Shown here: positions 15,072 to 61,199 of the stretch, piece by piece
How positions within the stretch are numbered: the first letter of the stretch is position 1
Layout: each line of letters opens with the position of its first letter
Notes under the pieces: model-generated
Databases searched by the model: none
Told to the model about the DNA's origin: nothing
The model's input: the letters and a program-made list of their open reading frames with translations, nothing else
DNA from: an uncultured Bacteroidales bacterium
GTDB lineage: Bacteria > Bacteroidota > Bacteroidia > Bacteroidales > UBA932
Direction: 5' to 3'
Assembly: GCA_944326365.1 (NCBI GenBank)
Contig: CALVDR010000007.1
Location: 10,037-74,036, forward strand
DNA: 64,000 nt
Translations under genes and position numbers: made by a program

Positions 15072-15713
15072 TCATAACAGGATATCCTGAAGTTCAGCAG
15101 GAGTGCCGAAAACGTAGTCCGACACGATATCCTTGCATGCAGGATTTCCCCAGCCTGCCAGTCCGAAATCCACTCCTGCGCTTCTGGCGCACTGGCTGTC
15201 ATAGACGGCATCTCCTATATAGAGTGTCTCCGCGGCTGAAGCTCCCGACATGGAGAGACAGGCATTCAGCGGATCAGGCGCAGGTTTGGGGCGGGAAGCA
15301 TCTTCCGCGCATACTACAGGACGGAAATAACCGTCCAGTCCGAACGGTCCTGCAAAATCGGATTCATACTCGCGGCGTGTCTTCGACGAGACGATTCCCA
15401 TTCCGTATCCTGCAGCCTTCAATGCTTCCAGAGACTCGCAGATGCCATCGAATAGCCGGATGGAAGTCCTGTAGTCCTGCATATGTCTGTACCATATCTC
15501 CTTGGCTGGTACAGTATCGTATATGCCCAGTCTGTTCAGGACGACATCTCCCGGGATACCCAGTGCGAACTTCAGGTCCGCGGCGGGGACATCCTTCCCA
15601 AGCAAGTCCTGCAGAGTGTCTTTCAGACTGCACAGGATGGCATGCTCGGTATCGAGCAATGTTCCGTCAATGTCGAATATGAGGTACTTGTACCGCTTTC
15701 CCATTGAACTCAC
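15072..15713 (-). CDS. HAD-family hydrolase (phosphoglycolate-phosphatase-like subfamily IA)
   Basis: 213 aa. DxDGTLxD motif I (LIFDIDGTLLDT), motif II VSSK, motif IV GDAVYD. Lies 6 nt downstream of the DeoR gene on the same strand. Confidence 0.8.
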   Translation of the reverse strand: MSSMGKRYKYLIFDIDGTLLDTEHAILCSLKDTLQDLLGKDVPAADLKFALGIPGDVVLNRLGIYDTVPAKEIWYRHMQDYRTSIRLFDGICESLEALKAAGYGMGIVSSKTRREYESDFAGPFGLDGYFRPVVCAEDASRPKPAPDPLNACLSMSGASAAETLYIGDAVYDSQCARSAGVDFGLAGWGNPACKDIVSDYVFGTPAELQDILL

Positions 15714-15719
15714 GTTTAT

Positions 15720-16484
15720 TTATGCTATAATGAGTCTGACTCCCAGTTCTTCCAGTCTGGCACGGGCATTTTCAGGCAGTCCGTCATCTGTGATCAGTAT
15801 GTCTACATTCTCCATCTGGCAGATCCGGGCGAAGCCGCGTTTCCCGAGTTTGCTCGAGTCTGTCAGGACCACGCATTTTTTCGCGGACCTGATGATCTGT
15901 CGGGTGAGGCTTGCTTCTTCCGTGGTGGCGCATGTGATGCCATAGTCCGGATCCAGTCCGTCCACTCCGATGAAGGCCTTGGAACAGAATACGTTGCTTA
16001 TGGCATTGTTGGCTTCCGCTCCGAGGACGGAAAGTGTATTGCTGTACAATAGTCCCCCTACCTGCATGACCGTGATGCCCTGGATGTCCCCCAGATGTGC
16101 GGATATGTTCACGGCCGTACTCACGACATTCAGCCTGCCTTTAGGCTTGAGCACCTCGGCGAATATGGTCATCGTCGAACCGGAAGCTATGATGATGGAG
16201 TCATCGTTTTCTATGAGGGCGGCTGCGGCTTCGGCTATCTTCTGTTTCTTCTCGAAGTTTATCAGTCTCTTTGTGCTCATGGTGATGTCCATGACCTGCG
16301 CAGCCGTAGGCAGGGCACTTCCGTATGCCCTGTAGAGCAGCCCTTTGGCTTCGAGATGGTTCAGGTCCTTGCGTATGGTAGTCTGTGTGACTCCGAATTT
16401 CTCCGCCAGGACCGACACTTTCACAAATCCCTCCTTGACTATGCTGTCCAGTATGTATTTCCTTCTTTCCGCTATAGCCGACAT
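15720..16484 (-). CDS. DeoR/GlpR-family transcriptional regulator
   Basis: 254 aa. N-terminal wHTH (VSVLAEKFGVTQTTIRKDLNHLE) and a C-terminal DeoR sugar-phosphate sensor domain. Divergent from susC. Confidence 0.9.
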   Translation of the reverse strand: MSAIAERRKYILDSIVKEGFVKVSVLAEKFGVTQTTIRKDLNHLEAKGLLYRAYGSALPTAAQVMDITMSTKRLINFEKKQKIAEAAAALIENDDSIIIASGSTMTIFAEVLKPKGRLNVVSTAVNISAHLGDIQGITVMQVGGLLYSNTLSVLGAEANNAISNVFCSKAFIGVDGLDPDYGITCATTEEASLTRQIIRSAKKCVVLTDSSKLGKRGFARICQMENVDILITDDGLPENARARLEELGVRLIIA

Positions 16485-16501
16485 GATCTTTATGTTTTAT
16501 T

Positions 16502-16650
16502 GAGCACGAAATCATACAAAATTAATAAAAGAAATCGGAAAACCTGAAATTTTCATGCATTGATTTATGTTTCGTTTCGAACCGAAAGCTTGTCAAAACG
16601 AAACATAAATTGCATTCAAAAATATCAAAAAGTGTTGCGAGAACGAAATC
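16502..16650. promoter_or_regulatory. candidate DeoR operator set in the deoR/susC divergent promoter region
   Basis: Perfect 15-bp inverted repeat ATTTATGTTTCGTTT (16563-16577) / AAACGAAACATAAAT (16596-16610) with an 18-bp spacer. Two direct boxes flank it: GAGCACGAAATC (16502-16513) and GAGAACGAAATC (16639-16650). All share the ACGAAA core. Confidence 0.5.
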
Positions 16651-16664
16651 TTTGCTTAATTTTG
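16634..16664 (+). promoter_or_regulatory. putative susC promoter (Bacteroides-type -33/-7)
   Basis: GTTG (16634-16637), 19 nt, then TAATTTTG (16657-16664), about 40 nt upstream of the ATG at 16705. The -33 box is imperfect. Confidence 0.35.
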
Positions 16665-16704
16665 CATGTGTATTGGTTTTTGAAACTATAATCGATTTTC
16701 TTCT

Positions 16705-19700
16705 ATGAACCACATGAACCACATGAAACACTTGACACTTGTCTTAACAGGCATTTGCGCTCTCGCCTTTTCCCAGGTACTGTCCGCGCAGGAAATGACG
16801 GTCAGAGGAGTCGTTTCCGCCACGACTGGAGAAAGTGTGATCGGAGCAGGGGTCATGATCAAGGGGACTGCTACGGGAGTCACCACGGATCTCGACGGCC
16901 GCTACGAACTCTCCGCACCGGAGAATGCTACACTGGTTTTTTCAAGCATCGGTTACAAGACTCTGGAAGTAAGGCTGGACGGACGTTCCGTGGTGAACGT
17001 GGCCCTGGAAACGGACAGCGAACTGCTTGAAGAGGCTGTCGCCATAGGCTATGGTTCGCAAAGCAAGATAACCCTGACAGGTTCTGTCACCCAGACTTCC
17101 GGAGCGGAACTGGTGAAAAACTCTTCTGTCAATCTGTCCCAGGGTCTGGCCGGACGTCTGTCCGGTGTCGTGGTCAGCAACAGGAGCGGCGAGCCGGGAA
17201 ACGATGACGCCACCATGTTCATCAGGGGGCGCAGTACTCTGGATGACAACTCCCCGCTGATCATTATCGATGGTATCCCCGGCCGTGATGACGAGTTCTC
17301 CAGGCTGACAGGTGAGGAAATCGAGAGCATCAATGTCCTGAAGGATGCTTCGGGTGCCATCTACGGTTCCAGATCTGCGAACGGCGTGATCCTGGTCACG
17401 ACCAAAAGGGGTGTTTATGGCGAAGCTCCGAGAGTCACCTTTACCTATGATATAGGTCTGCAGCAGCCTACGAGGCTGGTGGACATGGCCGATGCCGTTC
17501 TGTACACCCATGCCTATAATGACGAGCTGGCTATCACCGGAGCGGCTCCGTACTACAACGAAACGCAGCTCCAGCACTATGCGGCCGGAGATGATCTGAT
17601 CCTGTATCCTAATACCGACTGGCTGGACGAGATCATCAAACCGGTCTCCGTGCAGCACAAATATGGTGTGAGCGTGAACGGAGGTTCCGACAGGGTGGCC
17701 TATTTCGTACAGTTCAACGGCCAGTACCAAGACGGTATCTACGAGAAATCCGCCACAAACTATGCGCAGTACAACGTCCGTTCGAACGTTGACATAAAGG
17801 TGACTGAAAGTCTCCGTCTCGGTGTCGACCTGAATGTGAGAAGGCAGCAGAAGAATTACTCGGCTTTCCCGTCTTCATCGGAGAATGACAACGGTATTTT
17901 CTATACCGCCATCAGAATGAAGCCTACCGGAGCCACTTATTATCCGAACGGCCTGCTTAGAGGCGGTACGAACCCAGCCGTCCTCGTCCAGGATCTGACA
18001 GGATACGACAGGACGTCCATCAATACCATAAACACGACATTCAATCTTGGCTGGGACATGTCCTGGCTGACAGAGGGCCTGTCCGTGAATGCCAGAATGG
18101 CGTATGACGTTGTAGGCGAGTTCAGGAAAAACTGGCTGAAGAACTGGGATTACTGGGAATATGACGAGATCACGGAACTTTACAACCAGCGTACCATTTC
18201 TTACTGGTCTTCGCCTGTACTGCATGAATATCAGGAAAATTACCAGACCCTGACGATCAACGCCAATATAAATTATGAGAGGGACTTCAACGGCCATCAT
18301 GTTTCGGCTCTCGCAGGTTTTGAGCAGAGTTCCTACAGATACGATACGTTCAATGCAGGCATCAATTCCTATGATTCCGACCTACTCGACGAATTTTTCG
18401 CCGGTACGGCGGACAAGAGCTGGTATGCCATAGACGGTTATGCGAAGGAGACCGCACGCAGGAGTTTCTTCGGACGAATAGGCTATGACTGGAAGAGCCG
18501 TTATATGATTCAGGCCATCATCCGTTTCGACGGATCCGAGAACTTCCCGAAAGAGAGCCGGTGGGGTATCTTCCCGGGAGTTTCACTCGGGTGGAGGATT
18601 TCTGAAGAACCGTTCGTGAAGAATAATGCCCCTTGGCTTACGAACCTGAAACTCAGGGCTTCGTACGGTGAACAGGGAAATGACAGCATCGATCCGTTCC
18701 AGTATCTCACCACATACGAATACACTGCTTTGACAGGATACAGCATGAAGATCGATGACAAGGAAGTCAGCTTCATCATACCGGGAAGCATCCCGAATCC
18801 GAAAGTGACGTGGGAAGTGGCAAGAACATGGAATGTCGGTCTGGACGGAAGGATATTCAACGGAATGCTCGGATGGGAGGTGGAATATTTCCATACCAGA
18901 AGATCGAACATCCTCTGCACCAGGAATGCATCCATCCCGTACTATACCGGTCTGACGAACAATCTTCCTGACGAGAATATCGGCATAGTGTCGAACAGGG
19001 GAGTCGAACTGCAGCTGACTCATGAGAACAGGGTAGCCAACGGCGAATTCCTCTACCGTATCGGCGGAAATATCATGTACGCCAGAAACCGGATCGAATA
19101 CATGGATGAGACACCGTGGGGCGAAGGACATGAATACATGAACGCTACCGGTCATCCCATGGGAGCCGAACTGTACTATCAGGTGATAGGCATCAACAAG
19201 ACCCAGGAAGATCTCGAGAAATATCCTCAGATGGCGGGAGCCACCCTTGGAGATTTCATATTCGCCGACCTGGACGAAAACGGTGTGATCGATACGTATG
19301 ACCGCAAACGCTGCGACCTGACTACGGTTCCGGAGCTGGTCTTCGGCCTGAATTTCGAGGCGCAGTGGAAAGGTTTCGATCTTTCCGTTCTCTTCCAGGG
19401 ACAGGGGCGTGCCAGATACTATTATGCCCCGCTTATGGACCCTGTGTCCGGAAACGTTGAAAGGGAAGCGGCTGAAAAGGCCTGGACACTGGACAATACG
19501 GATTCAGACTGGCCGCGACTCGGTTCCAATGTCTCGAACGGCCATACGACACGTTCGTCTTTCTACTATCGCGATGCTTCCTTCCTGCGACTGAAGAATG
19601 TCGAGCTTGGTTACACATTCAACCAGGCCATGTTCGGTACCAAGGTAGGTATCAGAAGTCTCAGGATCTATATCGCCGGCTATAACCTTCTGACTTTCTC

Positions 19701-19797
19701 CGGACTGAAGAACGTGGACCCGGAGACAGATGACGAGTCTTACCAGAATTATCCTCAGATGCGTATATTCAACGCAGGTGTGAAACTTACATTCTAA
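16705..19797 (+). CDS. susC: SusC/RagA-family TonB-dependent outer-membrane transporter
   Basis: 1030 aa. Signal peptide, carboxypeptidase-regulatory-like N-domain (VRGVVSATTGESVIGAGVMIKGT), plug (SGEPGNDDATMFIRGRST), C-terminal beta-barrel ending ...FNAGVKLTF. Followed by susD. Confidence 0.93.
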   Translation: MNHMNHMKHLTLVLTGICALAFSQVLSAQEMTVRGVVSATTGESVIGAGVMIKGTATGVTTDLDGRYELSAPENATLVFSSIGYKTLEVRLDGRSVVNVALETDSELLEEAVAIGYGSQSKITLTGSVTQTSGAELVKNSSVNLSQGLAGRLSGVVVSNRSGEPGNDDATMFIRGRSTLDDNSPLIIIDGIPGRDDEFSRLTGEEIESINVLKDASGAIYGSRSANGVILVTTKRGVYGEAPRVTFTYDIGLQQPTRLVDMADAVLYTHAYNDELAITGAAPYYNETQLQHYAAGDDLILYPNTDWLDEIIKPVSVQHKYGVSVNGGSDRVAYFVQFNGQYQDGIYEKSATNYAQYNVRSNVDIKVTESLRLGVDLNVRRQQKNYSAFPSSSENDNGIFYTAIRMKPTGATYYPNGLLRGGTNPAVLVQDLTGYDRTSINTINTTFNLGWDMSWLTEGLSVNARMAYDVVGEFRKNWLKNWDYWEYDEITELYNQRTISYWSSPVLHEYQENYQTLTINANINYERDFNGHHVSALAGFEQSSYRYDTFNAGINSYDSDLLDEFFAGTADKSWYAIDGYAKETARRSFFGRIGYDWKSRYMIQAIIRFDGSENFPKESRWGIFPGVSLGWRISEEPFVKNNAPWLTNLKLRASYGEQGNDSIDPFQYLTTYEYTALTGYSMKIDDKEVSFIIPGSIPNPKVTWEVARTWNVGLDGRIFNGMLGWEVEYFHTRRSNILCTRNASIPYYTGLTNNLPDENIGIVSNRGVELQLTHENRVANGEFLYRIGGNIMYARNRIEYMDETPWGEGHEYMNATGHPMGAELYYQVIGINKTQEDLEKYPQMAGATLGDFIFADLDENGVIDTYDRKRCDLTTVPELVFGLNFEAQWKGFDLSVLFQGQGRARYYYAPLMDPVSGNVEREAAEKAWTLDNTDSDWPRLGSNVSNGHTTRSSFYYRDASFLRLKNVELGYTFNQAMFGTKVGIRSLRIYIAGYNLLTFSGLKNVDPETDDESYQNYPQMRIFNAGVKLTF

Positions 19798-19810
19798 GAT
19801 GACGAATATC

Positions 19811-21772
19811 ATGAAAAGATACATTCCAATACTTTCGGTTCTGATGTTGCTTGCCGCCTGCAATGACGACTTCCTGGACAAGCAGCCTCTCGACAAGCTT
19901 TCAGAAGAAGTCGTGTTCAACAGTGCCGCTCTGGCCGAATCATACGTGAATGCACTGTATACGGTGCTTCCTGATCCGTTTCAGGAAGGAAATATCAGCT
20001 GTATCACCGACGAGGGATTCTTCCGCTATGGCGGAACTTCCACAAGATACATCGCGGACGGCAGCATGACGCCTTCCAACGTGATGTACATAGAAGAGGG
20101 AGGTACTGCCCACGATACCAGAACCACTACCCTGAATATCTGGAACCGTGCATACGAGTGGATATACAGGATGAATTATTTCATCAATTATATCACCGTG
20201 AACGGGACTGAAATGGATGAAGCATCCAGGGACAGGCTCATGGGTGAAGTCTACTTCCTCAGGGCATGGGCTTACTATAATCTCATCCAGCGCTATGCCG
20301 GAGTCCCTATCATCACTACTGCCTACAGTCTCAATGACGTGTATGCGGAGGAAAGGGATACTTTCGATGACTGCGTGGATTTCATTCTGGGCGATCTCGA
20401 AACTGCGGAGAAACTTCTGCCTGCGAAGGAAAACTGTCTGCTTGGACGCATAAACAAGGACATCGTCCTGGCTCTCAGATGCCGTGTCACTCTGCTGGCG
20501 GCTTCACCTCTGTTCAACGATCCGGAGCTTCCTCAGGGCAGCGTATTCAGAGGCCGGTATGATTTCCAGGGCAAGTGGGAACGCGCCTACAAGGCAGCCA
20601 AGGCCATAGTCGACAGGGCCGATGTGGATGGGGCATATTCCCTTGATGATACCTACGACGGCTACTGGAAGGACATACATTCCCCTGAACTGATATGGGC
20701 CAAATACTTCATATCGAACGCAGATGCCACAACCAATTCTGCAAAAAAGGCACAGCTACTCTACTCCGTGGTGTATTTCAACGGTTGGACAGCTTGCAAT
20801 CCTACCCAGGCCATGGTCCTGGACTACGAGATGAAGAACGGAAAGAAGATATTCGAAGACGGCTCCGGCTATGATCCCGAGCATCCGTTCAGGGACAGGG
20901 ATCCCCGCTTTTACTATACGTGTGCGGCTCCGTTCAGCACTTACTGCAACACGGATGCTACAGGCTATCATGAAAACGAACTCCTTCTCTATCTCCTGTA
21001 TGACGGAAAGACCAGAGATGATTTCGCAGCCGGAAAGACCGAACCGGACTATACCAGCAAGGCTACGCACCTGTGGCATGCCACGAATACCATGGGCATG
21101 GAGCTGAACAAATGGTACATCCCGACTTCTCCTATCACGGAAGCCGAAGTGGGCAGTCTCCTCTATCCGTGGTTCCGTCTGGCGGAGATGTATCTGAATC
21201 TCGCGGAATGCGCCTACAATCTCGGCTATGAGGACGAATGCCGTACTTACATAAACAAGGTGCGCCAGCGTCCGGACGTGATGATGCCGCAGATCGGTGA
21301 AAGCGGAGAAGCTTTATGGGACAGACTCGTGAACGAACGCCGCATCGAGCTTGCATTCGAGTTCACCCGTTATTTCGATGTCCGCCGCTGGAAAACCGCA
21401 CCGTTCTACGAAAATATCCCTATCGCAGGCATGCGTACGATGATACTCAAGAACGGCGCCCGTCAGGACACTGTATATCGTGTGGTGCGCCCGTATGACG
21501 AGTCGAAGAACAATACCTGCTATTACTGGAAGAATTCCGTGGAACGCCAGAACTACATGTCCGCTACAGGAGAGGATATCGAATGCGTAGTGACTTACAA
21601 GTGGCTCGGGAAAGAGTACAAGGTCGACTACGGCGACTGCTGTCTGACCGTATCTCCTACGCAGAAACATTTCCCGAAGGTGGGAGATGTATATCCGAAC
21701 TATCTGATGCCGATTCCGGCCAATGAGATAGCCAAGGCCAATGGTACCATCGTCCAAAACCCGGGATATTGA
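19811..21772 (+). CDS. susD: SusD/RagB-family nutrient-binding outer-membrane lipoprotein
   Basis: Lipobox MKRYIPILSVLMLLAAC. SusD-typical blocks RAWAYYNLIQRYAGVPI, LAEMYLNLAECAY, ERRIELAFEFTRYFDVRRW. Confidence 0.9.
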   Translation: MKRYIPILSVLMLLAACNDDFLDKQPLDKLSEEVVFNSAALAESYVNALYTVLPDPFQEGNISCITDEGFFRYGGTSTRYIADGSMTPSNVMYIEEGGTAHDTRTTTLNIWNRAYEWIYRMNYFINYITVNGTEMDEASRDRLMGEVYFLRAWAYYNLIQRYAGVPIITTAYSLNDVYAEERDTFDDCVDFILGDLETAEKLLPAKENCLLGRINKDIVLALRCRVTLLAASPLFNDPELPQGSVFRGRYDFQGKWERAYKAAKAIVDRADVDGAYSLDDTYDGYWKDIHSPELIWAKYFISNADATTNSAKKAQLLYSVVYFNGWTACNPTQAMVLDYEMKNGKKIFEDGSGYDPEHPFRDRDPRFYYTCAAPFSTYCNTDATGYHENELLLYLLYDGKTRDDFAAGKTEPDYTSKATHLWHATNTMGMELNKWYIPTSPITEAEVGSLLYPWFRLAEMYLNLAECAYNLGYEDECRTYINKVRQRPDVMMPQIGESGEALWDRLVNERRIELAFEFTRYFDVRRWKTAPFYENIPIAGMRTMILKNGARQDTVYRVVRPYDESKNNTCYYWKNSVERQNYMSATGEDIECVVTYKWLGKEYKVDYGDCCLTVSPTQKHFPKVGDVYPNYLMPIPANEIAKANGTIVQNPGY

Positions 21773-24768: not shown

Positions 24769-24770
24769 TC

Positions 24771-26627: not shown

Positions 26628-26639
26628 AAGTTCTTATCT

Positions 26640-27485
26640 ATGGCATTAAGAGTAACAGAACAACCGTCATTGTATGACCATCTGGAGAAGAAATCGGTGG
26701 CCGAAATACTTCATGACATCAACGAGGAGGACAAGAAAGTCCCTCTCGCTATAGAAAAGGCGCTGCCTGACCTGGAAAGACTGGTCAGTGCTATCGAACA
26801 TCAGCTTCGCAATGGCGGAAGGATGTTCTATGTGGGCTGCGGGACGGGGGGCCGTCTGTCTGTCCTGGATCAGGTGGAGCTCCCGAACACTTACGGTATT
26901 GACCCGGAGATGATACAGTGCGTCCTGGCCGGCGGTGTGGAGAATCTGGTATTGGCCCTCGAAGAGGCCGAAGATGATATCGAAGAGGGATGGAGGACCC
27001 TTCAGGAAAAACATGTCAGCCCTAAAGACATAATAGTGGGGATAAGTGCCAGCGGCTGCACTCCGTATGTGCTCGCCACGCTGAAACACTGTCAGGAAAA
27101 CGGTATACCTACCGGATCTTTTGTCGGGAATCCTGATTCTCCTATTTCGAAGTATTCGGACTATCCTTGCGAGATCGTGTGCGGACCGGAGTATATCACG
27201 GGAAGCACCAGGATGAAGTGCGGTACAGTACAGAAACTGGTATGTGACATGATCAGCACCACTGTGCTCATCCGCCTGGGACGTATCGAAGGGAACCGGA
27301 TGGTGAATGTCCGCCTGATAAACAACAAGGTAGTGGACCGTTCTGTCAGGATGCTGATGGAGAGGAATCCGTCGCTGAAGGACTATGACTGGTGCGAGAA
27401 GATGATCAAGGAGAACGGCAATGTGAAAAAGACAGAGCAGTATCTCTATGAGCATGGTTATATAGACAAACTTCCGGAAGAATGA
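26640..27485 (+). CDS. murQ: N-acetylmuramic acid 6-phosphate etherase
   Basis: 281 aa SIS-domain protein with MurQ-type blocks FYVGCGTGGRLSVLD, ISASGCTPYV, GSTRMKCGTVQKLV, NRMVNV. Confidence 0.88.
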   Translation: MALRVTEQPSLYDHLEKKSVAEILHDINEEDKKVPLAIEKALPDLERLVSAIEHQLRNGGRMFYVGCGTGGRLSVLDQVELPNTYGIDPEMIQCVLAGGVENLVLALEEAEDDIEEGWRTLQEKHVSPKDIIVGISASGCTPYVLATLKHCQENGIPTGSFVGNPDSPISKYSDYPCEIVCGPEYITGSTRMKCGTVQKLVCDMISTTVLIRLGRIEGNRMVNVRLINNKVVDRSVRMLMERNPSLKDYDWCEKMIKENGNVKKTEQYLYEHGYIDKLPEE

Positions 27486-28867
27486 ACATGGGCATGAAGC
27501 ATGGAATAGCTGTCTTTGTGTCGCAGTTGATGGTTTCAGCTGTGCTCCTCACCCTGTCCTCCGGCTGTGACCGGAACGACGGTCCCGACCTGACCCGTTT
27601 CTCCGGCGTAGTCATCAACGAAGTGGCGGCCCATGACGAGAGGACGGACGCGGAAAGCTGGGTGGAGCTGGTGAATACGTCTTCCGGGACTGTGGATCTG
27701 TCCGGACTCGGACTTTTCCTGTATGACGAGTATTTCGACGGCATGAATATCCATGATTTCGCCGGGCAGAGTCTTTCTGCAGGTGAGCGCATGGTGCTGA
27801 GCACTGCCGATGACGGTCTGCGTACAGGTTTCGCTTCAGATGCACAGTTCGAGCTGCGTCTGGCTCCTGACAGGTCGGGAGAAGCCGTCGACAGTTTCAG
27901 CCGGGATGCCATATCTTCTCCCGGGGCGTTGCCGGTAGCGGGATCTTATCAGCGTATTCCTGACGGAAACGGAACATGGACATCGTCCCCGGCCGCTTCT
28001 CGCGGAAAGGCGAATCTGATACTGTCTCTGGAAAATACGAAACATAATGCTATCTGGCTGTGGAGTACTCACATGAAGGAATGGCTGGCTGACGATGCGG
28101 CCGTCATGAAACGGATGAAGGCTCTGGGATACGATCATGTCCTGCTGAATTATGCTGCATTCCAGTACAGCAATGCGAAGACTGCCAGGGAATTCATGGC
28201 CGCAGCGGCAGATGCTGGCATTATGGTCCATGCCTGGATACAGTGTTTCTATAACGGAGGATGGGTAAGCCCGGTGATAGATGCTGAAAACAGGTATGAC
28301 CAGGCTCTTTTCGATGATATCATCGAGAGAGCAGGCGGGTATATCGATGAATTCGGCGTCCAGGGAATTCATCTGGACTATATCAGATTCGGCGGTACGG
28401 CATACAAGCACAATCCTTCAGCCGAGATTACGGCCGTGGGGGCCGTGACCGAGTTCTGCCGCCAGATCCGTGAAGCCATGGATGCCAGAGGTGAAAACAT
28501 CATCCTTTCGGCTGCCATGATGGCTGAGGACAACGCAGCTTATTACTATGGACAGAATGCTGCCCAGATGGGACGGTACATTCATATACTGATGCCGATG
28601 ATCTACAGGTATCAGGAGGGCGGAGTCTCGTACAGTACGGACTGGTGCATGAAGATGGTGCGACTTTTCACTACAGTCACAGATGCCCAGGTGTGGGCCG
28701 GTACGCAGACTTACAGCTATGTCGGCAACAATGTCAGCGGGCTGGATGAGGAACGGCTGCGTTCCGACTGTGAGGATTTCGTCGGATCCGGAGCCTCGGG
28801 AATAGTCCTGTTCAGATATGCACTCGGGACATTCCCTGACGTGAATGACTTATGGGAGTCAGAATAG
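27482..28867 (+). CDS. lipoprotein: lamin-tail domain (LTD) + glycoside-hydrolase-like TIM barrel (GHL10/YngK-like)
   Basis: 461 aa. Lipobox LTLSSGC. LTD pattern VVINEVAAHDERTDAESWVELVNTSSGTVDLSGLGL. C-terminal (beta/alpha)8-like region with GIHLDYIRF and ILMPMIYRY blocks. ATGA overlap with murQ. Confidence 0.6.
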   Translation: MNMGMKHGIAVFVSQLMVSAVLLTLSSGCDRNDGPDLTRFSGVVINEVAAHDERTDAESWVELVNTSSGTVDLSGLGLFLYDEYFDGMNIHDFAGQSLSAGERMVLSTADDGLRTGFASDAQFELRLAPDRSGEAVDSFSRDAISSPGALPVAGSYQRIPDGNGTWTSSPAASRGKANLILSLENTKHNAIWLWSTHMKEWLADDAAVMKRMKALGYDHVLLNYAAFQYSNAKTAREFMAAAADAGIMVHAWIQCFYNGGWVSPVIDAENRYDQALFDDIIERAGGYIDEFGVQGIHLDYIRFGGTAYKHNPSAEITAVGAVTEFCRQIREAMDARGENIILSAAMMAEDNAAYYYGQNAAQMGRYIHILMPMIYRYQEGGVSYSTDWCMKMVRLFTTVTDAQVWAGTQTYSYVGNNVSGLDEERLRSDCEDFVGSGASGIVLFRYALGTFPDVNDLWESE

Positions 28868-28902
28868 GAAAACATCATTTAACACTTTAAACTAATAGTA
28901 TT

Positions 28903-31203
28903 ATGAAAAAGATTGCTTTGTTTTTGATGCCGGTTCTCGCCGTGGCAATGCTTTTTACGGGATGCGACAAGAATAAGGTCGACCCTGAAGAGCCGGTCAA
29001 GAGCGTAGGAACATTTACGCAGGCAGCCATAGTGGATGCTGTGGCCGGCATGTATGCGGAATGGACGGAAACCACTACCATTCCTCAGGAACTCAAAGTC
29101 TCAAACGCTACACTGACGCTGCCTCAGTATCAGTACGCCATGGCCAGACTCATGGTGGACATCAGGGACGGCAATGCAGGTGACATAGAGGTCCTGAACT
29201 TCAAACCGGCCGACCATCCGGAGCGTGACAGCTATGATGCGGAGACTATCGCAGTGTACGGCGGTCCGTCTGACGGGTCGAACACTGAAGACCTCGGAAA
29301 CATCGCCGAACGTATGATAGCCGCCATGTCAGAAGACGGACAGGTGCCTAACCAGACACTCTTCACCAGAGATGGGGAAGCCATCGCTTATTCCACAAAC
29401 CGTGCTACCGTGACTTTTGCCCGCGCCATCAGCGCCTACAAGGAAGACGGCAAGATGCCGGAAAGCGTGACTACCGACTATCTTTCTGCCGCAGCTACAC
29501 TGAAAGGCTTCGCACAGCAGTTCGTCACATATCTTGACGTATGGGAGAACAACATCGCCGAAACCCTGAGCGCAGACGGTTCGCACTGTTCAGACAACGA
29601 AACAGCCTGGGAGAACGTACACTTCATTCCTATTCCTTATTCAGGAGGCTATACCGATGGCGTGGATCAGTATGACCCTAAGTACCAGCCGTACCATACC
29701 ATCACGGTGGACGGAGTTACATATTCTGCAGCTCAGTGCTGGGGTATCGCCCTCAAAGGTATCCTCGACCTGGTGACAGTGGAAGGCTCAGCAGTGCTCC
29801 CTGCCGAAAGAAATGAAACGGTACATACGCTCGGAAACGGAAAACCGCTTACTACTCCTATTCCTGCATTGGAAGACTTCTTCGAGTGGGGACTGTATCC
29901 ATGGTATGAAAAGGCTGACGATCCTTGTGTCATCAGGGATGACAATGGCGAAATCCGTTCTGTAGGCATCGACTTCCTGGTCAAGCTCATTCCATGGCAT
30001 CTGACCCGTTCAAGCCAGCTCGGAGCCATAGGCAACTTCCAGACGTTCGGTGAAGATCCTGCGAGCGCCCTCGTGCTTCCTCCATACGAAGGAAATATCA
30101 GCCCTATGAGAGAGCTGCTTATAGCTGCACGTTTCTACAAATATCTGCTTGACAACGATATCAACGAGAATGTCTATGATGCCATGAAAGACGTCATGAT
30201 AGACGCAGACCTGTATGGTGTGGACCCTGACCCTCTGTATGTCAGCGAGACAGGACTCAATTTCGCATACGGACAGGGCGAGCAGACATTGAAGGTCACT
30301 GCCCTTTCAGAGAACTGGACCGCTACTTCAAGTGCCGGCTGGGTGACTGTCTCACCGGCTTCAGGTCCTGCATCGGAGACTTCACAGGATGTGACGATAT
30401 CTGTAGTTGCCAATGAAGGCGGTTCCCGTACGGCTACTGTGACATTCTCCATACCTTCGGGTCCTTCAAAAGAGGTGACAGTCACTCAGGCTCCGTCCCC
30501 TTCTACGAACACCATAAAGGATTTCGTCACCGAATACGTGAAGATACTTGATATCTGGGAAGAGACTGTCGGCACTGTGAACTACCTTGACGGAATCGGA
30601 GCCACTACGAACGAAGATAACGCGCCGTACGATGTGGAGAATGCCCACTATGTCCCTATGGAGACAACCATCACTGTCGGTGACCAGACATTGGGTACTG
30701 CTGACATGTTCGAACTCGCTATCAGGTCATACCTGCTGCTCAGAGGCTATGACGGAAACAGCACTACCGGAGGAAACGGGACTTTCGAGTCCGTGACACC
30801 TGCCACACTGTCTTCCACCCTGCCTGATACCCACGCCTACAAATGGGGAAGCAATCCGTTCAACGAGACCGGTTCCACTTCTGCGGGCAATGTCACCCAA
30901 GGCAACGGCGGTGAACTCAGGATGGGCGACCCTAATACGGCTGACGGAGTGGAAGCGGTGAAGTTCGACATCCTGGACAATTTCGCGCAGCGCAGCTGCA
31001 ATTATCCTATTAACAACGGCTCTCAGATCTCCAATATGTGCGGATATGCTGCAGGCCAGCTGGTCGGATACTATGGCTGCTTCTGCGCCCAGCGAGGTCT
31101 CATCACTTATGCATATTTCTTCAAATATATGCTTGACAACAACCTTGAGGATCTTTCTACGGTTCAGGAAGATCATGTGTTCGAGACGCATTTGTTCAAA
31201 TAG
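28903..31203 (+). CDS. large surface lipoprotein with three copies of a PMBR-like module and one BACON domain
   Basis: 766 aa. Lipobox AMLFTGC. BACON-like segment at about nt 30290-30495 (NWTATSSAGWVTVSPASGPASETSQDVTISVVANEGGSRTATVTFSI...VTVTQ). Internally repeated module, see findings. Confidence 0.7.
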   Translation: MKKIALFLMPVLAVAMLFTGCDKNKVDPEEPVKSVGTFTQAAIVDAVAGMYAEWTETTTIPQELKVSNATLTLPQYQYAMARLMVDIRDGNAGDIEVLNFKPADHPERDSYDAETIAVYGGPSDGSNTEDLGNIAERMIAAMSEDGQVPNQTLFTRDGEAIAYSTNRATVTFARAISAYKEDGKMPESVTTDYLSAAATLKGFAQQFVTYLDVWENNIAETLSADGSHCSDNETAWENVHFIPIPYSGGYTDGVDQYDPKYQPYHTITVDGVTYSAAQCWGIALKGILDLVTVEGSAVLPAERNETVHTLGNGKPLTTPIPALEDFFEWGLYPWYEKADDPCVIRDDNGEIRSVGIDFLVKLIPWHLTRSSQLGAIGNFQTFGEDPASALVLPPYEGNISPMRELLIAARFYKYLLDNDINENVYDAMKDVMIDADLYGVDPDPLYVSETGLNFAYGQGEQTLKVTALSENWTATSSAGWVTVSPASGPASETSQDVTISVVANEGGSRTATVTFSIPSGPSKEVTVTQAPSPSTNTIKDFVTEYVKILDIWEETVGTVNYLDGIGATTNEDNAPYDVENAHYVPMETTITVGDQTLGTADMFELAIRSYLLLRGYDGNSTTGGNGTFESVTPATLSSTLPDTHAYKWGSNPFNETGSTSAGNVTQGNGGELRMGDPNTADGVEAVKFDILDNFAQRSCNYPINNGSQISNMCGYAAGQLVGYYGCFCAQRGLITYAYFFKYMLDNNLEDLSTVQEDHVFETHLFK

Positions 31204-31260
31204 CGGTTAATAGTGTTTTCCAGCCTCCGGATTGTGCCGGAAAGGCAGTGTGACGAGGGT

Positions 31261-31318
31261 GACTGAAAGGAGAAGTTTCAAGTGCGACACGGAAGTACCC
31301 TTTTCAGTCGCCCTTTTT
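31261..31318 (+). terminator. possible internal attenuator/terminator hairpin within the locus
   Basis: GACTGAAAGG (31261-31270) pairs with CC(T)TTTCAGTC (31299-31309; one bulged T), with a 28-nt loop. It is followed by GCCCTTTTT. It sits in the 153-nt gap between the BACON lipoprotein gene and the transglutaminase-like gene. Confidence 0.3.
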
Positions 31319-31356
31319 AATTGGTTTGACCGGAATCCGGTTTTAACGACTTTTTT

Positions 31357-32391
31357 ATGAAACGATATATAACTTCGATAGCGGTTCTTTCCGTATTGCT
31401 TTTTATAAGTTGCGCCTGCGACAAAAACAGCGGCGACAGCGGTAAGGACGATGTTGACGTGGAGTTCACGGCAACAGGTTGGAACGGATATTTCGCGGAA
31501 GCTCTGGCGAAGGCCTATGATGAGTTCTCGGAGACAGGGGATATCCCTGCGACCGTAAATGTGGAAGGGCTGAAATACAACAGGGGCAGGTACCTGGCTG
31601 CCGGCATCCAGATTCTCAGGAAAATCATCGCGGAACCTGATACATGGCAGGATGAGGATGTGACTTACATTATAGCCTCCGGACCTGACAGCTATGCGAA
31701 CAATACCTTCAATGACGATGTCATGACTTTCGATGCATTCATGGACGTGCTTGATATCGCCTATGAATACGCCGGAGAGCGAAATGTTTTCCCGAACTAC
31801 TGCACTACGGAAGCAGAGCATAAGGACCCTGACGGTTCGGTGTATTCCGTAAAGATGACCATCAATACCATCTATGTCATGATGACGAGGGTTTTCGCAT
31901 ATTTCGTGGAAAACAATTCCCTGCCTGAAGAAATCAGCACCTGGGATGCTGACTATCTCCATGAGACGCTGAACTGCGAAGTTTCCGATCCTCTGGTGGT
32001 ATCTGCCATGGAGACCGCCACTGAAGGCCTGGTTTCGGACTACGACAGGGCGAAGGCCATTTTCGAATATGCCCGTGACGAATGGGAGTGGCTGAACTAC
32101 AACAACACTTCCAAAGGTGCGGTCGGGACCATTCAGGACAAGGGAGGAAACTGCTGCGACCTGACACATGCCATAGTGGCCATGAGCCGGGCTGCCGGCA
32201 TACCGGCCAGATACAGACACGCCCAGTGCCAGTACGCGAGCGGGGTGATAGGCCATGTGATAGCCGAGATTTACGTTGACGGAGTCTGGTATCCGGCCGA
32301 TGCTTCGAACAACGAGAATACTTTCGGAAACCACGAGGCCTGGTCGCACATGGCCACGTTCAACGGCAGGTATAACGAACTTCCATTCTGA
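31357..32391 (+). CDS. transglutaminase-core (cysteine-peptidase-like) lipoprotein with N-terminal PMBR-like modules
   Basis: 344 aa. Lipobox LLFISC. C-terminal transglutaminase core with Cys/His/Asp context KGGNCCDLTHAIVAMSRAAGIPARY...GHVIAEIYVDGVWYPADAS. The N-terminus shares the module of the preceding gene. Confidence 0.75.
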   Translation: MKRYITSIAVLSVLLFISCACDKNSGDSGKDDVDVEFTATGWNGYFAEALAKAYDEFSETGDIPATVNVEGLKYNRGRYLAAGIQILRKIIAEPDTWQDEDVTYIIASGPDSYANNTFNDDVMTFDAFMDVLDIAYEYAGERNVFPNYCTTEAEHKDPDGSVYSVKMTINTIYVMMTRVFAYFVENNSLPEEISTWDADYLHETLNCEVSDPLVVSAMETATEGLVSDYDRAKAIFEYARDEWEWLNYNNTSKGAVGTIQDKGGNCCDLTHAIVAMSRAAGIPARYRHAQCQYASGVIGHVIAEIYVDGVWYPADASNNENTFGNHEAWSHMATFNGRYNELPF

Positions 32392-32408
32392 AACAGGAGA
32401 AACCATAC

Positions 32409-33275
32409 ATGATTCTGATAGCCGACAGCGGGGCCTCGAAGACCGACTGGTCCTGCATAAGAAAACAGACTTTCGAGCGGATGTCCTTCATCAGCCAGGG
32501 CTACAACCCGAATTACATCTCAAGTGCGGACATGGTGGAGGATATCAGGAACAGTCTTCCTGAATCGTTCCCTGCGGAACAGGTCTCGGAGATTTATTTT
32601 TACGGAGCAGGAGTCACCCCGCTGCAGTACCCGTTCATGACCGACACATTGCTGAAAGTGTTCCGGAACGCGGAGACTGTCTTTATAGCCATGGATACCC
32701 TGGCTTCCTGCCGAGCCCTTCTCGGGACAGAACCGGGCTTCGCTGCCATTCTGGGAACCGGGGCCAACACCTGCCTGTACGACGGGGAGAACGAGTGTTT
32801 CAACGTGGATTCCTGCGGCTTCATCCTCGGTGACGAAGGCAGCGGAGGCTATCTTGGAAAGAGGATGATTACGGACTATATCAGACGCAACATGCCTTCC
32901 CGCGTGTACCGTCTGGTGGGAGAAGCCCTTGGGTATGGCAACGATGAACTTCTCGACATCATATACACCAGGCCTTTCCCGAACAGGTTCTGCGCCCAGT
33001 ACGCCAGATTCATCAGGGAGCATACTGATTTCGATCCCTATTTCCCGGAACTGGTCACGGACGCGTTCCGGAAGTTCTTCGACCGTATCGTGACGCGCTA
33101 TGACCATTACCGCTCGTACAAGTTCAACGCGGTAGGGTCGGTCGCCTACCATTTCAGAGACCTCCTCGATCCTGTCGTGGCCGAATACGGCATGGAAATA
33201 GGCAAGATAGCCAAGGCGCCTATGGACGGGCTCGTGGAATACCACACGGCAAAACTCTCGAAAAATAAGGAATGA
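32409..33275 (+). CDS. BadF/BadG/BcrA/BcrD-type sugar kinase, MurK-like (MurNAc/GlcNAc kinase)
   Basis: 288 aa. ASKHA phosphate-1 MILIADSGASKTDW, ILGTGANTCLYDG, GFILGDEGSGGYLGKR. Same family and size as the Tannerella MurNAc kinase. Confidence 0.75.
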   Translation: MILIADSGASKTDWSCIRKQTFERMSFISQGYNPNYISSADMVEDIRNSLPESFPAEQVSEIYFYGAGVTPLQYPFMTDTLLKVFRNAETVFIAMDTLASCRALLGTEPGFAAILGTGANTCLYDGENECFNVDSCGFILGDEGSGGYLGKRMITDYIRRNMPSRVYRLVGEALGYGNDELLDIIYTRPFPNRFCAQYARFIREHTDFDPYFPELVTDAFRKFFDRIVTRYDHYRSYKFNAVGSVAYHFRDLLDPVVAEYGMEIGKIAKAPMDGLVEYHTAKLSKNKE

Positions 33276-34495
33276 TCATGGAACTCCGGAAAAACGGCGG
33301 CATAGTCATCCCCCTTGTCATCATCGGGATGATGTTCTTCGTGGTGGGATTCGCTCTGGGTATCAACAGCTATATCGTGCCCCTGCTTGAAAGTGCTCTG
33401 GAAGTCTCTTCCGGTCAGTCTTACATGATTCTCGCGGCTACATTCGCGGCGTTTTTCGTTTTCAGCTATCCGGCCACATCGCTTATTCTCAGGATAGGAT
33501 ACAGGAAGACCATGGTCCTGGCGTTCGCCGTCTTCGCTGCCGGATTCCTTCTGTTCGTGCCTTCGGCACAATGCCGGAGTCTTCCGCTTTTCCTCCTGGC
33601 TTCCTTCGTATGCGGCACGGCCAATACGATACTCCAGGCGGCGATCAACCCTTACGCCACATATCTTGGCCCCATAGAGTCCGCTGCCAGACGGATAAGC
33701 ATCATGGGTATATGCAACATCATGGCATGGCCTGTCTCCCCGCTTTTCCTGTCTTGGCTCATAGGCAAGTCAATAGATTCGATGTCCCTGTCCGACATCA
33801 TATTCCCCTTCTATGTCCTTGCTGTCATCTTCGTGATTCTGGGAATCTTCGTCTGGCTGTCACCTTTGAAAGAGATGAAGTTCGGGGAACAGGAGGAAGA
33901 CCTGGAGGGCGCGTATGATGACGGCCGTACTTCCATCTGGCAGTTCCCGCACCTGATTCTCGGGAGTATCGCCCTGTTCATGTATGTAGGCATAGAGACC
34001 ATCGCCATGGCCAGTTCAGTGGACTATGCAGTGAGCCTGGGGCTTTCCGATCCCGAACAGTATGCGCTCATTCCGAGCATAGGCATGGTGGCCGGCTATG
34101 TCTTCGGCATCATCATGATTCCCGGATATCTGAGCCAGAGTGCAGCCCTTCGCCTGCATTCGTGGATAGCAGTGGCCGGGACTCTTCTCGTGGTCCTGCT
34201 TCCCGCCCGGATGTCGGTATATGCCGTGGCCGTGGTGACATTCGGCTGTTCTGTCATGTATCCTGCCATATTCCCTCTGGCTTTGGACGGACTTGGGAAA
34301 TTCGCCAAGACAGGTTCATCCATACTGGTAGCCTGCATTGCCGGAGGTTCCATAGTGCCTCTGCTCTATGGTTTTCTGAAGGATTGGGTCGGGAGTCAGG
34401 CAGCGTACTGGATAGGTATCCCGTGTTTCCTTTTCATCATGTATTATGCTTACTGCGGTTATCGTCTGAAAAAACCTGTCTCCCCGCGCAGGTGA
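33272..34495 (+). CDS. sugar MFS permease (FucP/GluP-like), MurT-like candidate
   Basis: 407 aa, 12 predicted TM segments, MFS loop motif LILRIGYRKTMVL. ATGA overlap with the kinase gene. Confidence 0.75.
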   Translation: MIMELRKNGGIVIPLVIIGMMFFVVGFALGINSYIVPLLESALEVSSGQSYMILAATFAAFFVFSYPATSLILRIGYRKTMVLAFAVFAAGFLLFVPSAQCRSLPLFLLASFVCGTANTILQAAINPYATYLGPIESAARRISIMGICNIMAWPVSPLFLSWLIGKSIDSMSLSDIIFPFYVLAVIFVILGIFVWLSPLKEMKFGEQEEDLEGAYDDGRTSIWQFPHLILGSIALFMYVGIETIAMASSVDYAVSLGLSDPEQYALIPSIGMVAGYVFGIIMIPGYLSQSAALRLHSWIAVAGTLLVVLLPARMSVYAVAVVTFGCSVMYPAIFPLALDGLGKFAKTGSSILVACIAGGSIVPLLYGFLKDWVGSQAAYWIGIPCFLFIMYYAYCGYRLKKPVSPRR

Positions 34496-34550
34496 TATTC
34501 CGTTTCCGGAACCGCAGGATCTTGAAAATTCAGGCATTTGTTGCCGGACT

Positions 34551-34577
34551 GACCGCAAAATTGCTAATTTTGCGGTC
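34551..34577 (+). terminator. intrinsic terminator closing the locus
   Basis: Perfect 12-bp stem GACCGCAAAATT / AATTTTGCGGTC with a 3-nt loop, followed by ATCTTT. Lies 56 nt after the permease stop. Confidence 0.65.
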
Positions 34578-60668: not shown

Positions 60669-61199
60669 ATGAGACACAGTATTTTCAGAACCGCCGTCAT
60701 CATTGCCGCCTTTTCCGTGCTTCTGCCGCTTGCAGGCTGCGATATGTTCCGTTCTCTGGCAGGCAGACCTACGGCTGAGGAGGTGGAACTGCTGCGTATA
60801 GAGAAATTGAAGGCCGAAGAGGCTGTCAGACAGGCCCGTGTGGACTCTCTTGCCAGACTGCAGGCTGAGATGGAAGACTCTCTGGCCATCATGGATTCCC
60901 TGTCGCAGATCCAGGGGACCATATTGAACCCTTCGGAAATGGGAGGTCTGTTCACCACCAGGCTGGATTCCCGATATTATATCGTAGTCGGCTCTTTCAG
61001 AAGCCGCAGCAATGCCGAAACTCTCTTTACCCAGGTCAGGGAAAAAGGCTACAGCCCGATCCTGATCAACTTCCGCAACGGTTTCAATTCCATCGCAGTA
61101 TCTCCGGCTGACAGTCTGCGTGAGGCTTTCCATGCCCTCAGAGCCGTCAAGGCCGAGCCGTTCTGTCCTGATGATGTATGGATTCTGGTAAATGAATAG
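60669..61199 (+). CDS. SPOR-domain lipoprotein
   Basis: Start at ATG 60669 (MRHSIFRTAVIIAAFSVLLPLAGC); the track start at 60660 is GTG inside the repeat. C-terminal SPOR pattern YYIVVGSFRSRSNAETLFTQVREKGYSPILI. Confidence 0.75.
   Translation: MRHSIFRTAVIIAAFSVLLPLAGCDMFRSLAGRPTAEEVELLRIEKLKAEEAVRQARVDSLARLQAEMEDSLAIMDSLSQIQGTILNPSEMGGLFTTRLDSRYYIVVGSFRSRSNAETLFTQVREKGYSPILINFRNGFNSIAVSPADSLREAFHALRAVKAEPFCPDDVWILVNE

Follow-up and report, generated by a model that had tools for sequence, protein, structure and literature searches.

A SusC/SusD locus centred on a MurQ-family etherase in Bacteroidales: a candidate peptidoglycan utilisation locus parallel to the Tannerella muropeptide operon

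The closest described system of this kind in Bacteroidota is the ampG-namZ-murT-murK-murQ operon of Tannerella forsythia for N-acetylmuramic acid (MurNAc) and muropeptides, which is said to have been described by Ruscitto (2016/2017), Hottmann (2018) and Stasiak (2023), and to our knowledge the sole established role of the MurQ family is the cleavage of the lactyl ether of MurNAc-6-phosphate (MurNAc-6-P). Here, a stretch of 64,000 nucleotides from an uncultured Bacteroidales bacterium (contig CALVDR010000007.1, positions 10,037 to 74,036 of the forward strand; hereafter the window) was analysed, in which a DeoR gene stands divergent from ten same-strand genes (16705-34495) that include a susC/susD pair and a gene for a MurQ-family protein. 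This locus is read, with moderate confidence, as a polysaccharide utilisation locus (PUL) for exogenous muropeptides or peptidoglycan that employs non-canonical enzymes and is not orthologous to the Tannerella murTKQ genes, a reading that draws on the function of the MurQ family, the presence of GH20 enzymes as the only core glycosidases, the recurrent amidases and peptidases, a GH20 lacking its usual arginine, and the predicted topology of the proteins.

The genes were assigned from a map of open reading frames (ORFs) together with Pfam and NCBIfam profile searches, which bear out the ORF positions and gene families given by an earlier sequence-only reading of this DNA:

15720..16484, minus strand: DeoR-family regulator (AgaR-like), divergent from susC (Pfam HTH_DeoR and DeoRC)
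16705..19797, plus strand: SusC-type TonB-dependent transporter without an STN signalling domain (TIGR04056, 897.7 bits; Plug and CarboxypepD_reg)
19799..21772, plus strand: SusD-family lipoprotein, 657 aa (SusD_RagB and SusD-like_3; lipobox LLAAC)
21772..23121, plus strand: neutral-ceramidase-fold zinc-amidase module, called Cer, residues 1-450, with a type-I signal peptide (Pfam Ceramidase_alk, 7.5e-12)
23209..24768, plus strand: GH20 type-A domain, residues ~480-998 of the same 998-aa protein (Glyco_hydro_20, 5.5e-105)
24771..26627, plus strand: GH20 type-B lipoprotein, called GH20b, 618 aa (Glyco_hydro_20, 9.1e-120)
26640..27485, plus strand: MurQ-family SIS protein of the PUL-type clade, 281 aa, cytoplasmic (NF003915 and NF009222)
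27482..28867, plus strand: lipoprotein with LTD and DUF4015 TIM-barrel domains (LTD-TIM), a candidate surface endo-glycanase (Pfam LTD and DUF4015)
28903..31203, plus strand: BACON lipoprotein, 766 aa, a candidate surface glycan-binding protein (BACON, 4.7e-12)
31357..32391, plus strand: transglutaminase-core lipoprotein (papain-like cysteine peptidase/amidase), a candidate endopeptidase for stem peptides or cross-links (Transglut_core, 8.7e-18)
32409..33275, plus strand: cytoplasmic sugar kinase, 288 aa, of the Bacteroidota MurK/K1058/BT_1ZXO family, D133-S134 paralogue clade (structure-sequence matches)
33272..34495, plus strand: FucP/GluP/NagP-type major facilitator superfamily (MFS) permease of the inner membrane, 407 aa (MFS_1)

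The traits by which a PUL is recognised are present, namely adjacent susC-like and susD-like genes (1 bp apart), carbohydrate-active enzymes (two GH20s, a GH-like TIM barrel and a BACON protein) and a regulator, the divergent DeoR, so that the description of a genuine SusC/SusD locus centred on a MurQ-family etherase is supported, and the predicted localisation signals fit a pathway from the surface through the periplasm to the cytoplasm. The gene overlaps quoted by the sequence-only reading (TGATG at 21770-21774; ATGA at 27482-27485 and 33272-33275) and its 12-bp terminal hairpin are exact in the sequence, whereas its general description of the junctions as short or overlapping does not extend to a gap of 154 bp (31204-31356) between the BACON and transglutaminase genes. 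Likewise, the first of its two GH20 proteins does carry a GH20 domain, but an N-terminal neutral-ceramidase-like module of ~450 aa had been overlooked, and the resulting Cer-GH20 fusion protein spans 21772-24768 on the plus strand.

For comparison, 58 MurQ loci (given L numbers here) were fetched with flanks of 10 kb each, the window proteins were mapped onto them and the neighbouring ORFs were clustered. The MurQ gene is 100% identical in contigs of Candidatus Cryptobacteroides intestinipullorum, a metagenome-assembled genome (MAG) from chicken caecum. A core composed of SusC, SusD, Cer (fused or stand-alone), GH20, GH20, MurQ, kinase and MFS permease was observed in more than 40 Bacteroidota loci, the carriers being Cryptobacteroides, Alistipes, Hallella, Prevotella (including a human-gut MAG), Egerieisoma, rumen Bacteroidales, Dysgonomonadaceae, Odoribacter, Tannerellaceae, Proteiniphilum and Chitinophagaceae, with Hallella multisaccharivorax DSM 17128 (L023) as a cultured carrier. 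Conservation of the gene order in other genomes, a check that the sequence-only reading had proposed, is thus found in dozens of them, so that the arrangement is not due to chance. MurQ is the central and most conserved gene of the cluster, its partners are nearly always Cer, the kinase and the MFS permease and usually the GH20s, SusC/D accompany it in most loci, and the association of kinase and permease with MurQ stands, the two being co-inherited with it in many Bacteroidota. A search seeded with a stand-alone Cer homologue returned to the same locus type.

The LTD-TIM, BACON and transglutaminase genes form an optional module of this locus type, and other lineages carry accessory genes of their own (a C1-like aminopeptidase, a C45/AAT Ntn-hydrolase, an FGase-family amidohydrolase, GH18 with GHL10, and a DegT aminotransferase). 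The core glycosidases are all specific for beta-N-acetylhexosamine (beta-HexNAc; GH20), and none acts on galactose, fucose, sialic acid or mannose. The amidases and peptidases that recur in the loci (Cer, the transglutaminase-core protein, the C1-like aminopeptidase, C45/AAT and FGase) fit a HexNAc glycopeptide as substrate. Among 51 pooled unannotated neighbours, classical peptidoglycan hydrolases were represented by single matches (AmiA-like, M55, C69 and GDSL), none of them inside a cluster; the AmiA-like MurNAc-L-Ala amidase lies ~2 kb from one cluster (L007), and the M55 D-aminopeptidase belongs to the pooled neighbours without its position relative to the clusters being resolved. Directly upstream of MurQ, a GH89 alpha-N-acetylglucosaminidase (NAGLU) was found in Odoribacter laneus (L038:7733-9943) and a 3-keto-disaccharide hydrolase in another distant locus (L040:9225-9968), so that the outer enzymes vary by lineage. 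A DegT/PseC-like sugar aminotransferase, unexpected in a catabolic amino-sugar cluster, lies between MurQ and Cer in six loci (L024:7265-8644, L039-L042 and L058), which belong to Proteiniphilum, Tannerellaceae, Flavitalea and a horse-gut MAG. One Cer-GH20 pair (L061:8001-11179) has no MurQ nearby and adjoins a PDDEXK_2/Rpn-type transposase-like gene, and the locus may therefore have been disrupted there.

The MurQ-family protein passes the cutoffs of two MurQ subfamily models (NF003915, 296.6 bits against 168; NF009222, 261.2 against 255), matches 4S12 with 198 bits and shows 41-43% identity to 4S12, to 4LZJ and to a Firmicute MurQ (L056). The catalytic glutamate pair is kept, LDQVE80 and ALE108 being aligned with DASE and AVE of 4S12/4LZJ; these positions we take to be the equivalents of E83 and E114 of Escherichia coli MurQ, from which their catalytic roles are presumed. 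A deaminase of the NagB-II/GlmS type was also considered for this SIS protein and rejected, the GlmS models giving ~21-29 bits against 248-297 for the MurQ models. In the tree, the PUL-type MurQs form a monophyletic clade of 45 sequences, sister to the canonical Bacteroidota MurQs, and the window protein does not group with characterised or canonical members. Whether it would fall outside the MurQ clade, the check on which the sequence-only reading had staked its case, thus has a divided answer: it lies inside the family with its catalytic residues kept, but outside the canonical and characterised clade, and it is best described as a candidate MurNAc-6-P etherase-like protein. In a second, more distant MurQ class (~50% identity; L044-L047 and L054), the kinase gene precedes that of MurQ.

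The kinase belongs to the structural family of both T. forsythia MurNAc kinases, with bit scores of 201 to 1ZXO, 199 to 1ZBS, 194.6 to K1058 (8OQK) and 185.4 to MurK (8OQW); the catalytic residues D95, N119 and D141 are kept, and the DxGxT loop reads DSGAS. In MurK, the MurNAc site comprises F34/F35 as N-acetyl pocket and I69, T94 and S133-P134-L135 as lactyl pocket (Stasiak et al., PMC10465942). The window kinase has N34, Y35, T69, M94, D133, S134 and C135 at these positions. Of these, M94, D133 and S134 show no variation among more than 35 kinases encoded after a PUL-type MurQ, while the kinases of kinase-then-MurQ operons keep I69 and S-P-L, with T or S at position 94 in the Tannerella-type loci, indicating a dedicated kinase clade that co-evolved with the PUL-type MurQ. 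The earlier label of a MurK-like kinase is accordingly right for the family, but the protein belongs to a separate paralogous clade in which the residues of MurNAc specificity are all altered, and invariantly so. The murT-murK-murQ context is also missing around the window kinase, the order being MurQ followed at a distance by kinase-MFS, with no MurT homologue in the locus.

The permease passes the TIGR01272 gluP model (209.7 bits against 202.55) and scores 264.4 bits against NagP_SO3503, below the cutoff of 625. Two loci of the second MurQ class, L046 and L047, from Muribaculaceae and Porphyromonadaceae MAGs, have the order AmpG-like MFS, NamZ, D-lactate-dehydrogenase-like FAD/Fe-S oxidase, membrane protein of 391-401 aa, kinase and MurQ, in agreement with the T. 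forsythia order ampG-ybbC-murT-murK-murQ (PMC5388701). The MurT family was recognised through this synteny in L046/L047 and not by comparison with the T. forsythia protein; of the two MurT-position proteins, that of L047 matches HGSNAT_cat/DUF5009 and NagX, and the window MFS is unrelated to the MurT-position protein (BLASTP, E = 0.12). The name MurT-like permease, given to the window protein by the sequence-only reading, therefore has to be dropped, one being NagX/HGSNAT-like and the other an MFS permease of the NagP/FucP type. The same applies to the idea that the Tannerella cytoplasmic trio had been embedded in a PUL, as the window has a sister MurQ clade, another kinase clade, another transporter family, the reversed order and no NamZ (NamZ_N and NamZ_C were without a match in any protein of the window locus and were found in L046 and L047). 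Judged from sequence, the cytoplasmic module runs parallel to the Tannerella trio without being orthologous to it, and the canonical recycling sets (AmpG, NamZ, MurT, MurK and MurQ) form a separate locus type in Bacteroidota. The oxidase between NamZ and MurT in these two loci (L046:5032-7836 and L047:5105-7900) is a protein of ~930 aa with FAD-oxidase, 4Fe-4S and CCG regions (GlcD/YdiJ-like), and could plausibly serve as D-lactate dehydrogenase, acting on the lactate that MurQ sets free.

The two GH20s of the locus, of type A and type B, are 42% identical, have distinct orthologues and both keep the catalytic pair in HIGGDE, but they differ in the -1 subsite. The type-A domain, which in the various loci either is fused to Cer or comes after it, keeps the arginine (HMDCGRWF), as do 20 of 20 readable orthologues, whereas in GH20b it is replaced by leucine (HLDVCLHF), the 29 readable orthologues having Leu in 16, Ser in 12 and Tyr in 1. 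All five nearest solved GH20s carry this arginine; the nearest solved relative of GH20b is 6Q63, a generic Bacteroides hexosaminidase. The residue (R162 in SpHex) is found in all known GH20 hexosaminidases, the listed exception being the lacto-N-biosidase LnbB with Gln190, whose GlcNAc (N-acetylglucosamine) in subsite -1 is 3-O-substituted (PMC4449183). This loss, in a GH20 whose gene travels with that of an etherase for 3-O-lactyl-GlcNAc, suggests that GH20b may accept MurNAc in subsite -1 and so fill the role of the absent NamZ, and it is the most specific new clue of this analysis. Both CerGH20 and GH20b are probably periplasmic.

The Cer module ends at about residue 450, directly ahead of the GH20 domain. 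Its AlphaFold2 model (built with 30 homologues; predicted local distance difference test score, pLDDT, 80.7; predicted template modelling score 0.84) retrieved neutral ceramidases only in a Foldseek search of the PDB (2ZWS, E 6.5e-22, probability 1.0, and 4WGK), and the motifs HTHS, CHP and GEPxxE plus Tyr motifs, which form the ceramidase zinc site, are invariant in the 30 homologues (H112, H114, S115, H206, E367, Y390 and Y397). Identity to the ceramidases is 14-18%, the C-terminal tail domain is missing, and ceramide is an unlikely substrate. The homologues are mostly stand-alone lipoproteins of ~445 aa that bear no functional name.

In the optional module, the LTD-TIM model (pLDDT 91.2) matched generic GH TIM barrels in Foldseek, including the spore-cortex-lytic SleL, the C-terminal domain of PgaB and GH18 chitinases, with many barrels at similar scores, so that no family can be called; the motif H297-x-D299-Y-x-R302 is invariant, and a sequence search of the PDB returned tagatose epimerases only (E ~1e-3), a generic TIM-barrel likeness. 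The triad Cys266/His300/Asp315 of the transglutaminase-core protein aligns to 3ISR. The domains flanking BACON and the N-terminus of the transglutaminase protein had no Pfam match up to E 5; the N-terminal ~190 residues of these two lipoproteins, which belong to no Pfam family, are weakly similar to each other (BLASTP, E 5e-4) and may share an unrecognised substrate-binding domain. In Bacteroidetes, acidic residues after the lipobox serve as an export signal for surface exposure of lipoproteins, and the presence of lipobox and acidic residues in the three lipoproteins of the module suggests that they are surface-exposed.

Under the peptidoglycan reading, in which the substrates and reactions of all the locus proteins are inferred, the LTD-TIM lipoprotein as a candidate endo-glycanase, the BACON lipoprotein as a binder and the transglutaminase-core protein as a candidate endopeptidase, acting on stem peptides or cross-links, would solubilise wall material at the surface, SusD would bind the fragments and SusC would import them. 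In the periplasm, the type-A GH20 would take off terminal GlcNAc, the Cer zinc amidase would strip the stem peptide from MurNAc as a candidate MurNAc-L-Ala amidase, and GH20b, in which the absence of the O3/O4-binding arginine would leave room for the 3-O-lactyl group, would free terminal MurNAc as a candidate exo-beta-N-acetylmuramidase in place of the absent NamZ. Free amino sugars would then be taken up by the NagP-type MFS permease, phosphorylated at O6 by the D133-type kinase and processed by the MurQ-clade etherase, which would split off D-lactate and leave GlcNAc-6-phosphate (GlcNAc-6-P). The DeoR repressor would control the locus, probably via ACGAAA repeats, by sensing a sugar phosphate.

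Of the substrates considered, bacterial cell wall is still the most parsimonious, and several observations weigh against it. The window locus is without a classical peptidoglycan hydrolase (GH23/25/73, NamZ, Amidase_2/3, LysM, NlpC/P60 or M23). The MurQ-family protein scores 248.3 bits against the TIGR00274 MurQ equivalog, below the cutoff of 302, and the PUL-type clade has five invariant changes in motifs of the SIS domain (S70G, P83N, A102N, A136S and N203D). In the kinase, the lactyl-pocket residues S133-P134-L135 are replaced by D-S-C in the window and D-S-L in most orthologues, an aspartate beside a carboxylate not being the expected design for a MurNAc kinase, and the N-acetyl pocket is more polar (F34/F35 to N/Y). 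An amidase role for Cer and a muramidase role for GH20b are without precedent, and distant loci contain GH89 NAGLU, GH18 with GHL10, the DegT aminotransferase and the 3-keto-disaccharide hydrolase, which are not suggestive of cell wall. The invariant pocket changes (S133D, P134S, T94M and F34/F35 to N/Y in the kinase; S70G, P83N, A136S and N203D in the PUL-type MurQ clade) would also suit another glycoconjugate with a 3-O-substituted or N-modified HexNAc, the variant being handled by the PUL-type kinase/MurQ pair, an explanation that is unlikely though not negligible. Either Cer would act as a de-N-acetylase and the kinase and etherase would use muramic acid, that is, de-N-acetylated MurNAc, or the pair would take another 3-O-substituted GlcNAc, for example a 3-O-glycosylated GlcNAc disaccharide from a biosidase-like GH20b, the 3-O group being beta-eliminated. 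In favour of this are the sole known Arg-less GH20, a lacto-N-biosidase that releases a disaccharide, the formal resemblance of ceramide, a 2-acylamino-1,3-diol, to C1-C3 of GlcNAc/MurNAc, and the DegT-type sugar aminotransferase beside Cer/MurQ in six loci. However, members of the MurQ family are known only for MurNAc-6-P, no conserved galactosidase or other enzyme for a second sugar is present in the loci, the recurrent peptidases suit a glycopeptide better, and deacetylation would have to come after cleavage of the glycoside, since GH20 catalysis needs the N-acetyl group.

The top NCBIfam matches of the permease (NagP), kinase (NagK_SO3507) and regulator (AgaR), the nearness of GH20b to the generic Bacteroides hexosaminidase 6Q63 and the GH18 of the rumen versions would be expected of an ordinary PUL for GlcNAc, chito-oligosaccharides or host HexNAc glycans to which MurQ had been added opportunistically for occasional MurNAc. 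These three matches are far under their equivalog cutoffs, however, and such a PUL is quite unlikely, as MurQ is the most conserved gene of the cluster with a co-evolved kinase clade, nagA and nagB are absent from the locus and from the remaining window proteins, a chitinase is absent from most loci, and plain GlcNAc substrates would leave the arginine loss of GH20b unexplained. That the cluster recycles what the cell sheds from its own peptidoglycan, instead of foreign wall, is highly unlikely: the scavenging and recycling genes of T. forsythia are co-transcribed (PMC5388701) and CerGH20 and GH20b are probably periplasmic, both of which would agree with it, but SusC/SusD and the three lipoproteins that are probably at the surface would serve no purpose unless material came from outside, and the canonical AmpG/NamZ/MurT/MurK/MurQ sets are a locus type of their own. 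Finally, the fusion of a hexosaminidase to a module that has the fold of neutral ceramidases and a complete zinc site recalls the degradation of glycosphingolipids (host or Bacteroidota-derived), with MurQ being incidental, and in animals GH20 enzymes degrade glycolipids terminated by GalNAc or GlcNAc. This last explanation is scarcely credible, given the low identity of Cer to ceramidases (14-18%) without their C-terminal tail domain, the lack of a galactosidase, glucosylceramidase or sialidase, and the strict link to MurQ, kinase and peptidases, which it leaves unexplained.

The regulatory features of the locus are the following:

16563..16610, no strand assigned: candidate DeoR operator, an 18-nt inverted repeat (ATTTATGTTTCGTTTCGA / TCAAAACGAAACATAAAT), 94% complementary
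31246..31323, plus strand: hairpin with T-run between the BACON and transglutaminase genes, a candidate internal terminator or attenuator (RNA folding)
34549..34577, plus strand: terminal 12-bp perfect hairpin (TGACCGCAAAAT/ATTTTGCGGTCA; sequence and RNAfold)

The regulator scores 213.5 bits against NCBIfam AgaR, below the cutoff of 260, and reaches no equivalog threshold. The DeoR linkage pointed out by the sequence-only reading is conserved, an orthologue of the regulator flanking seven loci (58-67% identity beside the cluster in L007, L015 and L024), and direct and inverted ACGAAA(C) repeats are common to the four DeoR-adjacent intergenic regions examined (window 16485-16704, L007:4841-5015, L015:9793-10000 and L024:761-1030). 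In the window they make up the inverted repeat at 16563-16610, with extra ACGAAA copies at 16507 and 16644, and in L011 such repeats also occur 3' of the BACON hairpin, upstream of the transglutaminase-kinase-MFS unit; the repeats are a candidate DeoR operator. The hairpin in the BACON gap has a stem of ~16 bp followed by TTTTT (-31.6 kcal/mol, z = -2.87, 0/200 shuffles as stable), and a GC-rich hairpin, often with a T-run, directly follows BACON in L003, L006, L008, L011, L012, L031, L037 and L050. Wherever the gap of a related locus was readable, such a hairpin is present, with conserved position and unrelated sequence; possible functions are internal termination, attenuation or stabilisation of the mRNA. 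A single plain ten-gene operon is therefore doubtful, and the locus probably consists of two DeoR-controlled units divided at the post-BACON hairpin, or of one unit attenuated there. The terminal hairpin is without a T-tract and was not called by a consensus terminator scan, a scan that is uninformative for this organism.

The locus is flanked by unrelated housekeeping genes, with MazG, ThiF and a release factor downstream and an HAD hydrolase and an acetyl-CoA hydrolase upstream, and neither RNA families nor tRNAs were detected across the window in Rfam and tRNA scans. The HAD-IA hydrolase gene (15072-15713, minus strand) follows DeoR after 6 bp in the same orientation, and the two are probably co-transcribed; a MupP-like MurNAc-6-P phosphatase was rejected for this gene, with 46 bits against a cutoff of 359 and no place beside DeoR in other loci. 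Long antisense ORFs on the minus strand (31207-32406, 22969-24399 and 26667-27455) overlap real locus genes and look like by-products of base composition, and the first of them (399 aa), which overlaps the transglutaminase gene and has no family match, was discarded as spurious. Elsewhere in the window, an ORF on the plus strand (61192-62574) combines Peptidase_M28 with a C-terminal TonB_C domain, an unusual fusion; an ORF of 373 aa between ThiF and the release factor (36234-37355, plus strand) has no Pfam or NCBIfam match; and a full-length acetate kinase gene (854-2068, plus strand) is followed after ~1 kb by an ORF (2998-4110, plus strand) that partially matches the acetokinase family (residues 166-325) and is either a divergent acetokinase paralogue or a remnant.

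All gut bacteria make peptidoglycan, the fragments of which are bound as ligands by NOD1, NOD2 and further sensors of the host, while the consumption of this peptidoglycome by the dominant gut Bacteroidales is essentially unknown. If the peptidoglycan reading is true, the locus, which occurs in chicken, ruminant and human-gut Prevotella MAGs as well as in a cultured Hallella strain, would provide a concrete genetic entry point to the removal of muropeptides in the ecosystems of gut and rumen, two non-orthologous MurNAc routes would have evolved in Bacteroidota, GH20b would be the first GH20 exo-beta-N-acetylmuramidase and Cer a new kind of MurNAc-L-Ala amidase. Should the kinase/MurQ pair act on another 3-O-substituted GlcNAc instead, the MurQ clade would represent a general 3-O-eliminase. 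Four enzyme groups are nominated for new activities or specificities, namely the Arg-less GH20, the ceramidase-fold amidase, the D133-type kinase and the PUL-type MurQ. No SusC/D-based peptidoglycan locus was found in the literature, the coverage of which was incomplete, so that a prior description is possible; within the same incomplete coverage, neither a function of the ceramidase-like family nor a link between an Arg-less GH20 and MurNAc was found, and a 2024 review of the gut peptidoglycome makes no mention of MurQ or PULs.

Compared with the known systems, the locus shares with the Tannerella operon its occurrence in Bacteroidota, the import of amino sugars, a 6-kinase of the same family, a MurQ-family etherase and a proposed dedication to exogenous wall. 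It differs in having a NagP/FucP-type MFS permease where Tannerella has a NagX/HGSNAT-like MurT, the other kinase paralogue, a sister-clade MurQ, the order MurQ then kinase, SusC/SusD and surface lipoproteins without AmpG or NamZ, and a DeoR regulator in place of the GppX hybrid two-component regulator. With the classical Bacteroidetes PULs (Sus, and the GH18/GH20 loci for N-glycans and chitin) it has in common susC/susD, surface lipoproteins including BACON, periplasmic exo-glycosidases, an inner-membrane MFS permease and a linked regulator, whereas the etherase with its dedicated kinase, the restriction of glycosidases to GH20, the ceramidase-fold amidase and cysteine peptidases, a SusC without STN and a regulator of the DeoR type, instead of a hybrid two-component system, SusR or an extracytoplasmic-function sigma factor, set it apart. 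The E. coli MurP-MurQ-MurR system is likewise repressor-controlled and has a MurQ-family etherase with catalytic glutamate that yields GlcNAc-6-P, but its transporter is of the phosphotransferase type, which phosphorylates during uptake so that no kinase is needed, its repressor MurR is of the RpiR type, and it has no enzymes for outer-membrane capture and trimming. At the level of single enzymes, GH20b resembles LnbB of Bifidobacterium bifidum in lacking the -1 arginine (Gln190 in LnbB, where this goes with a 3-O-substituted GlcNAc in subsite -1), but has Leu or Ser in place of Gln, is much nearer in sequence to ordinary hexosaminidases (6Q63) and has no lectin domain. Similarly, Cer shares the catalytic-domain fold and the HTHS, xHP and GE motifs with the neutral ceramidases of Pseudomonas aeruginosa (2ZWS) and human (4WGK), but is devoid of their tail domain and stands fused or adjacent to a GH20 within an amino-sugar locus.

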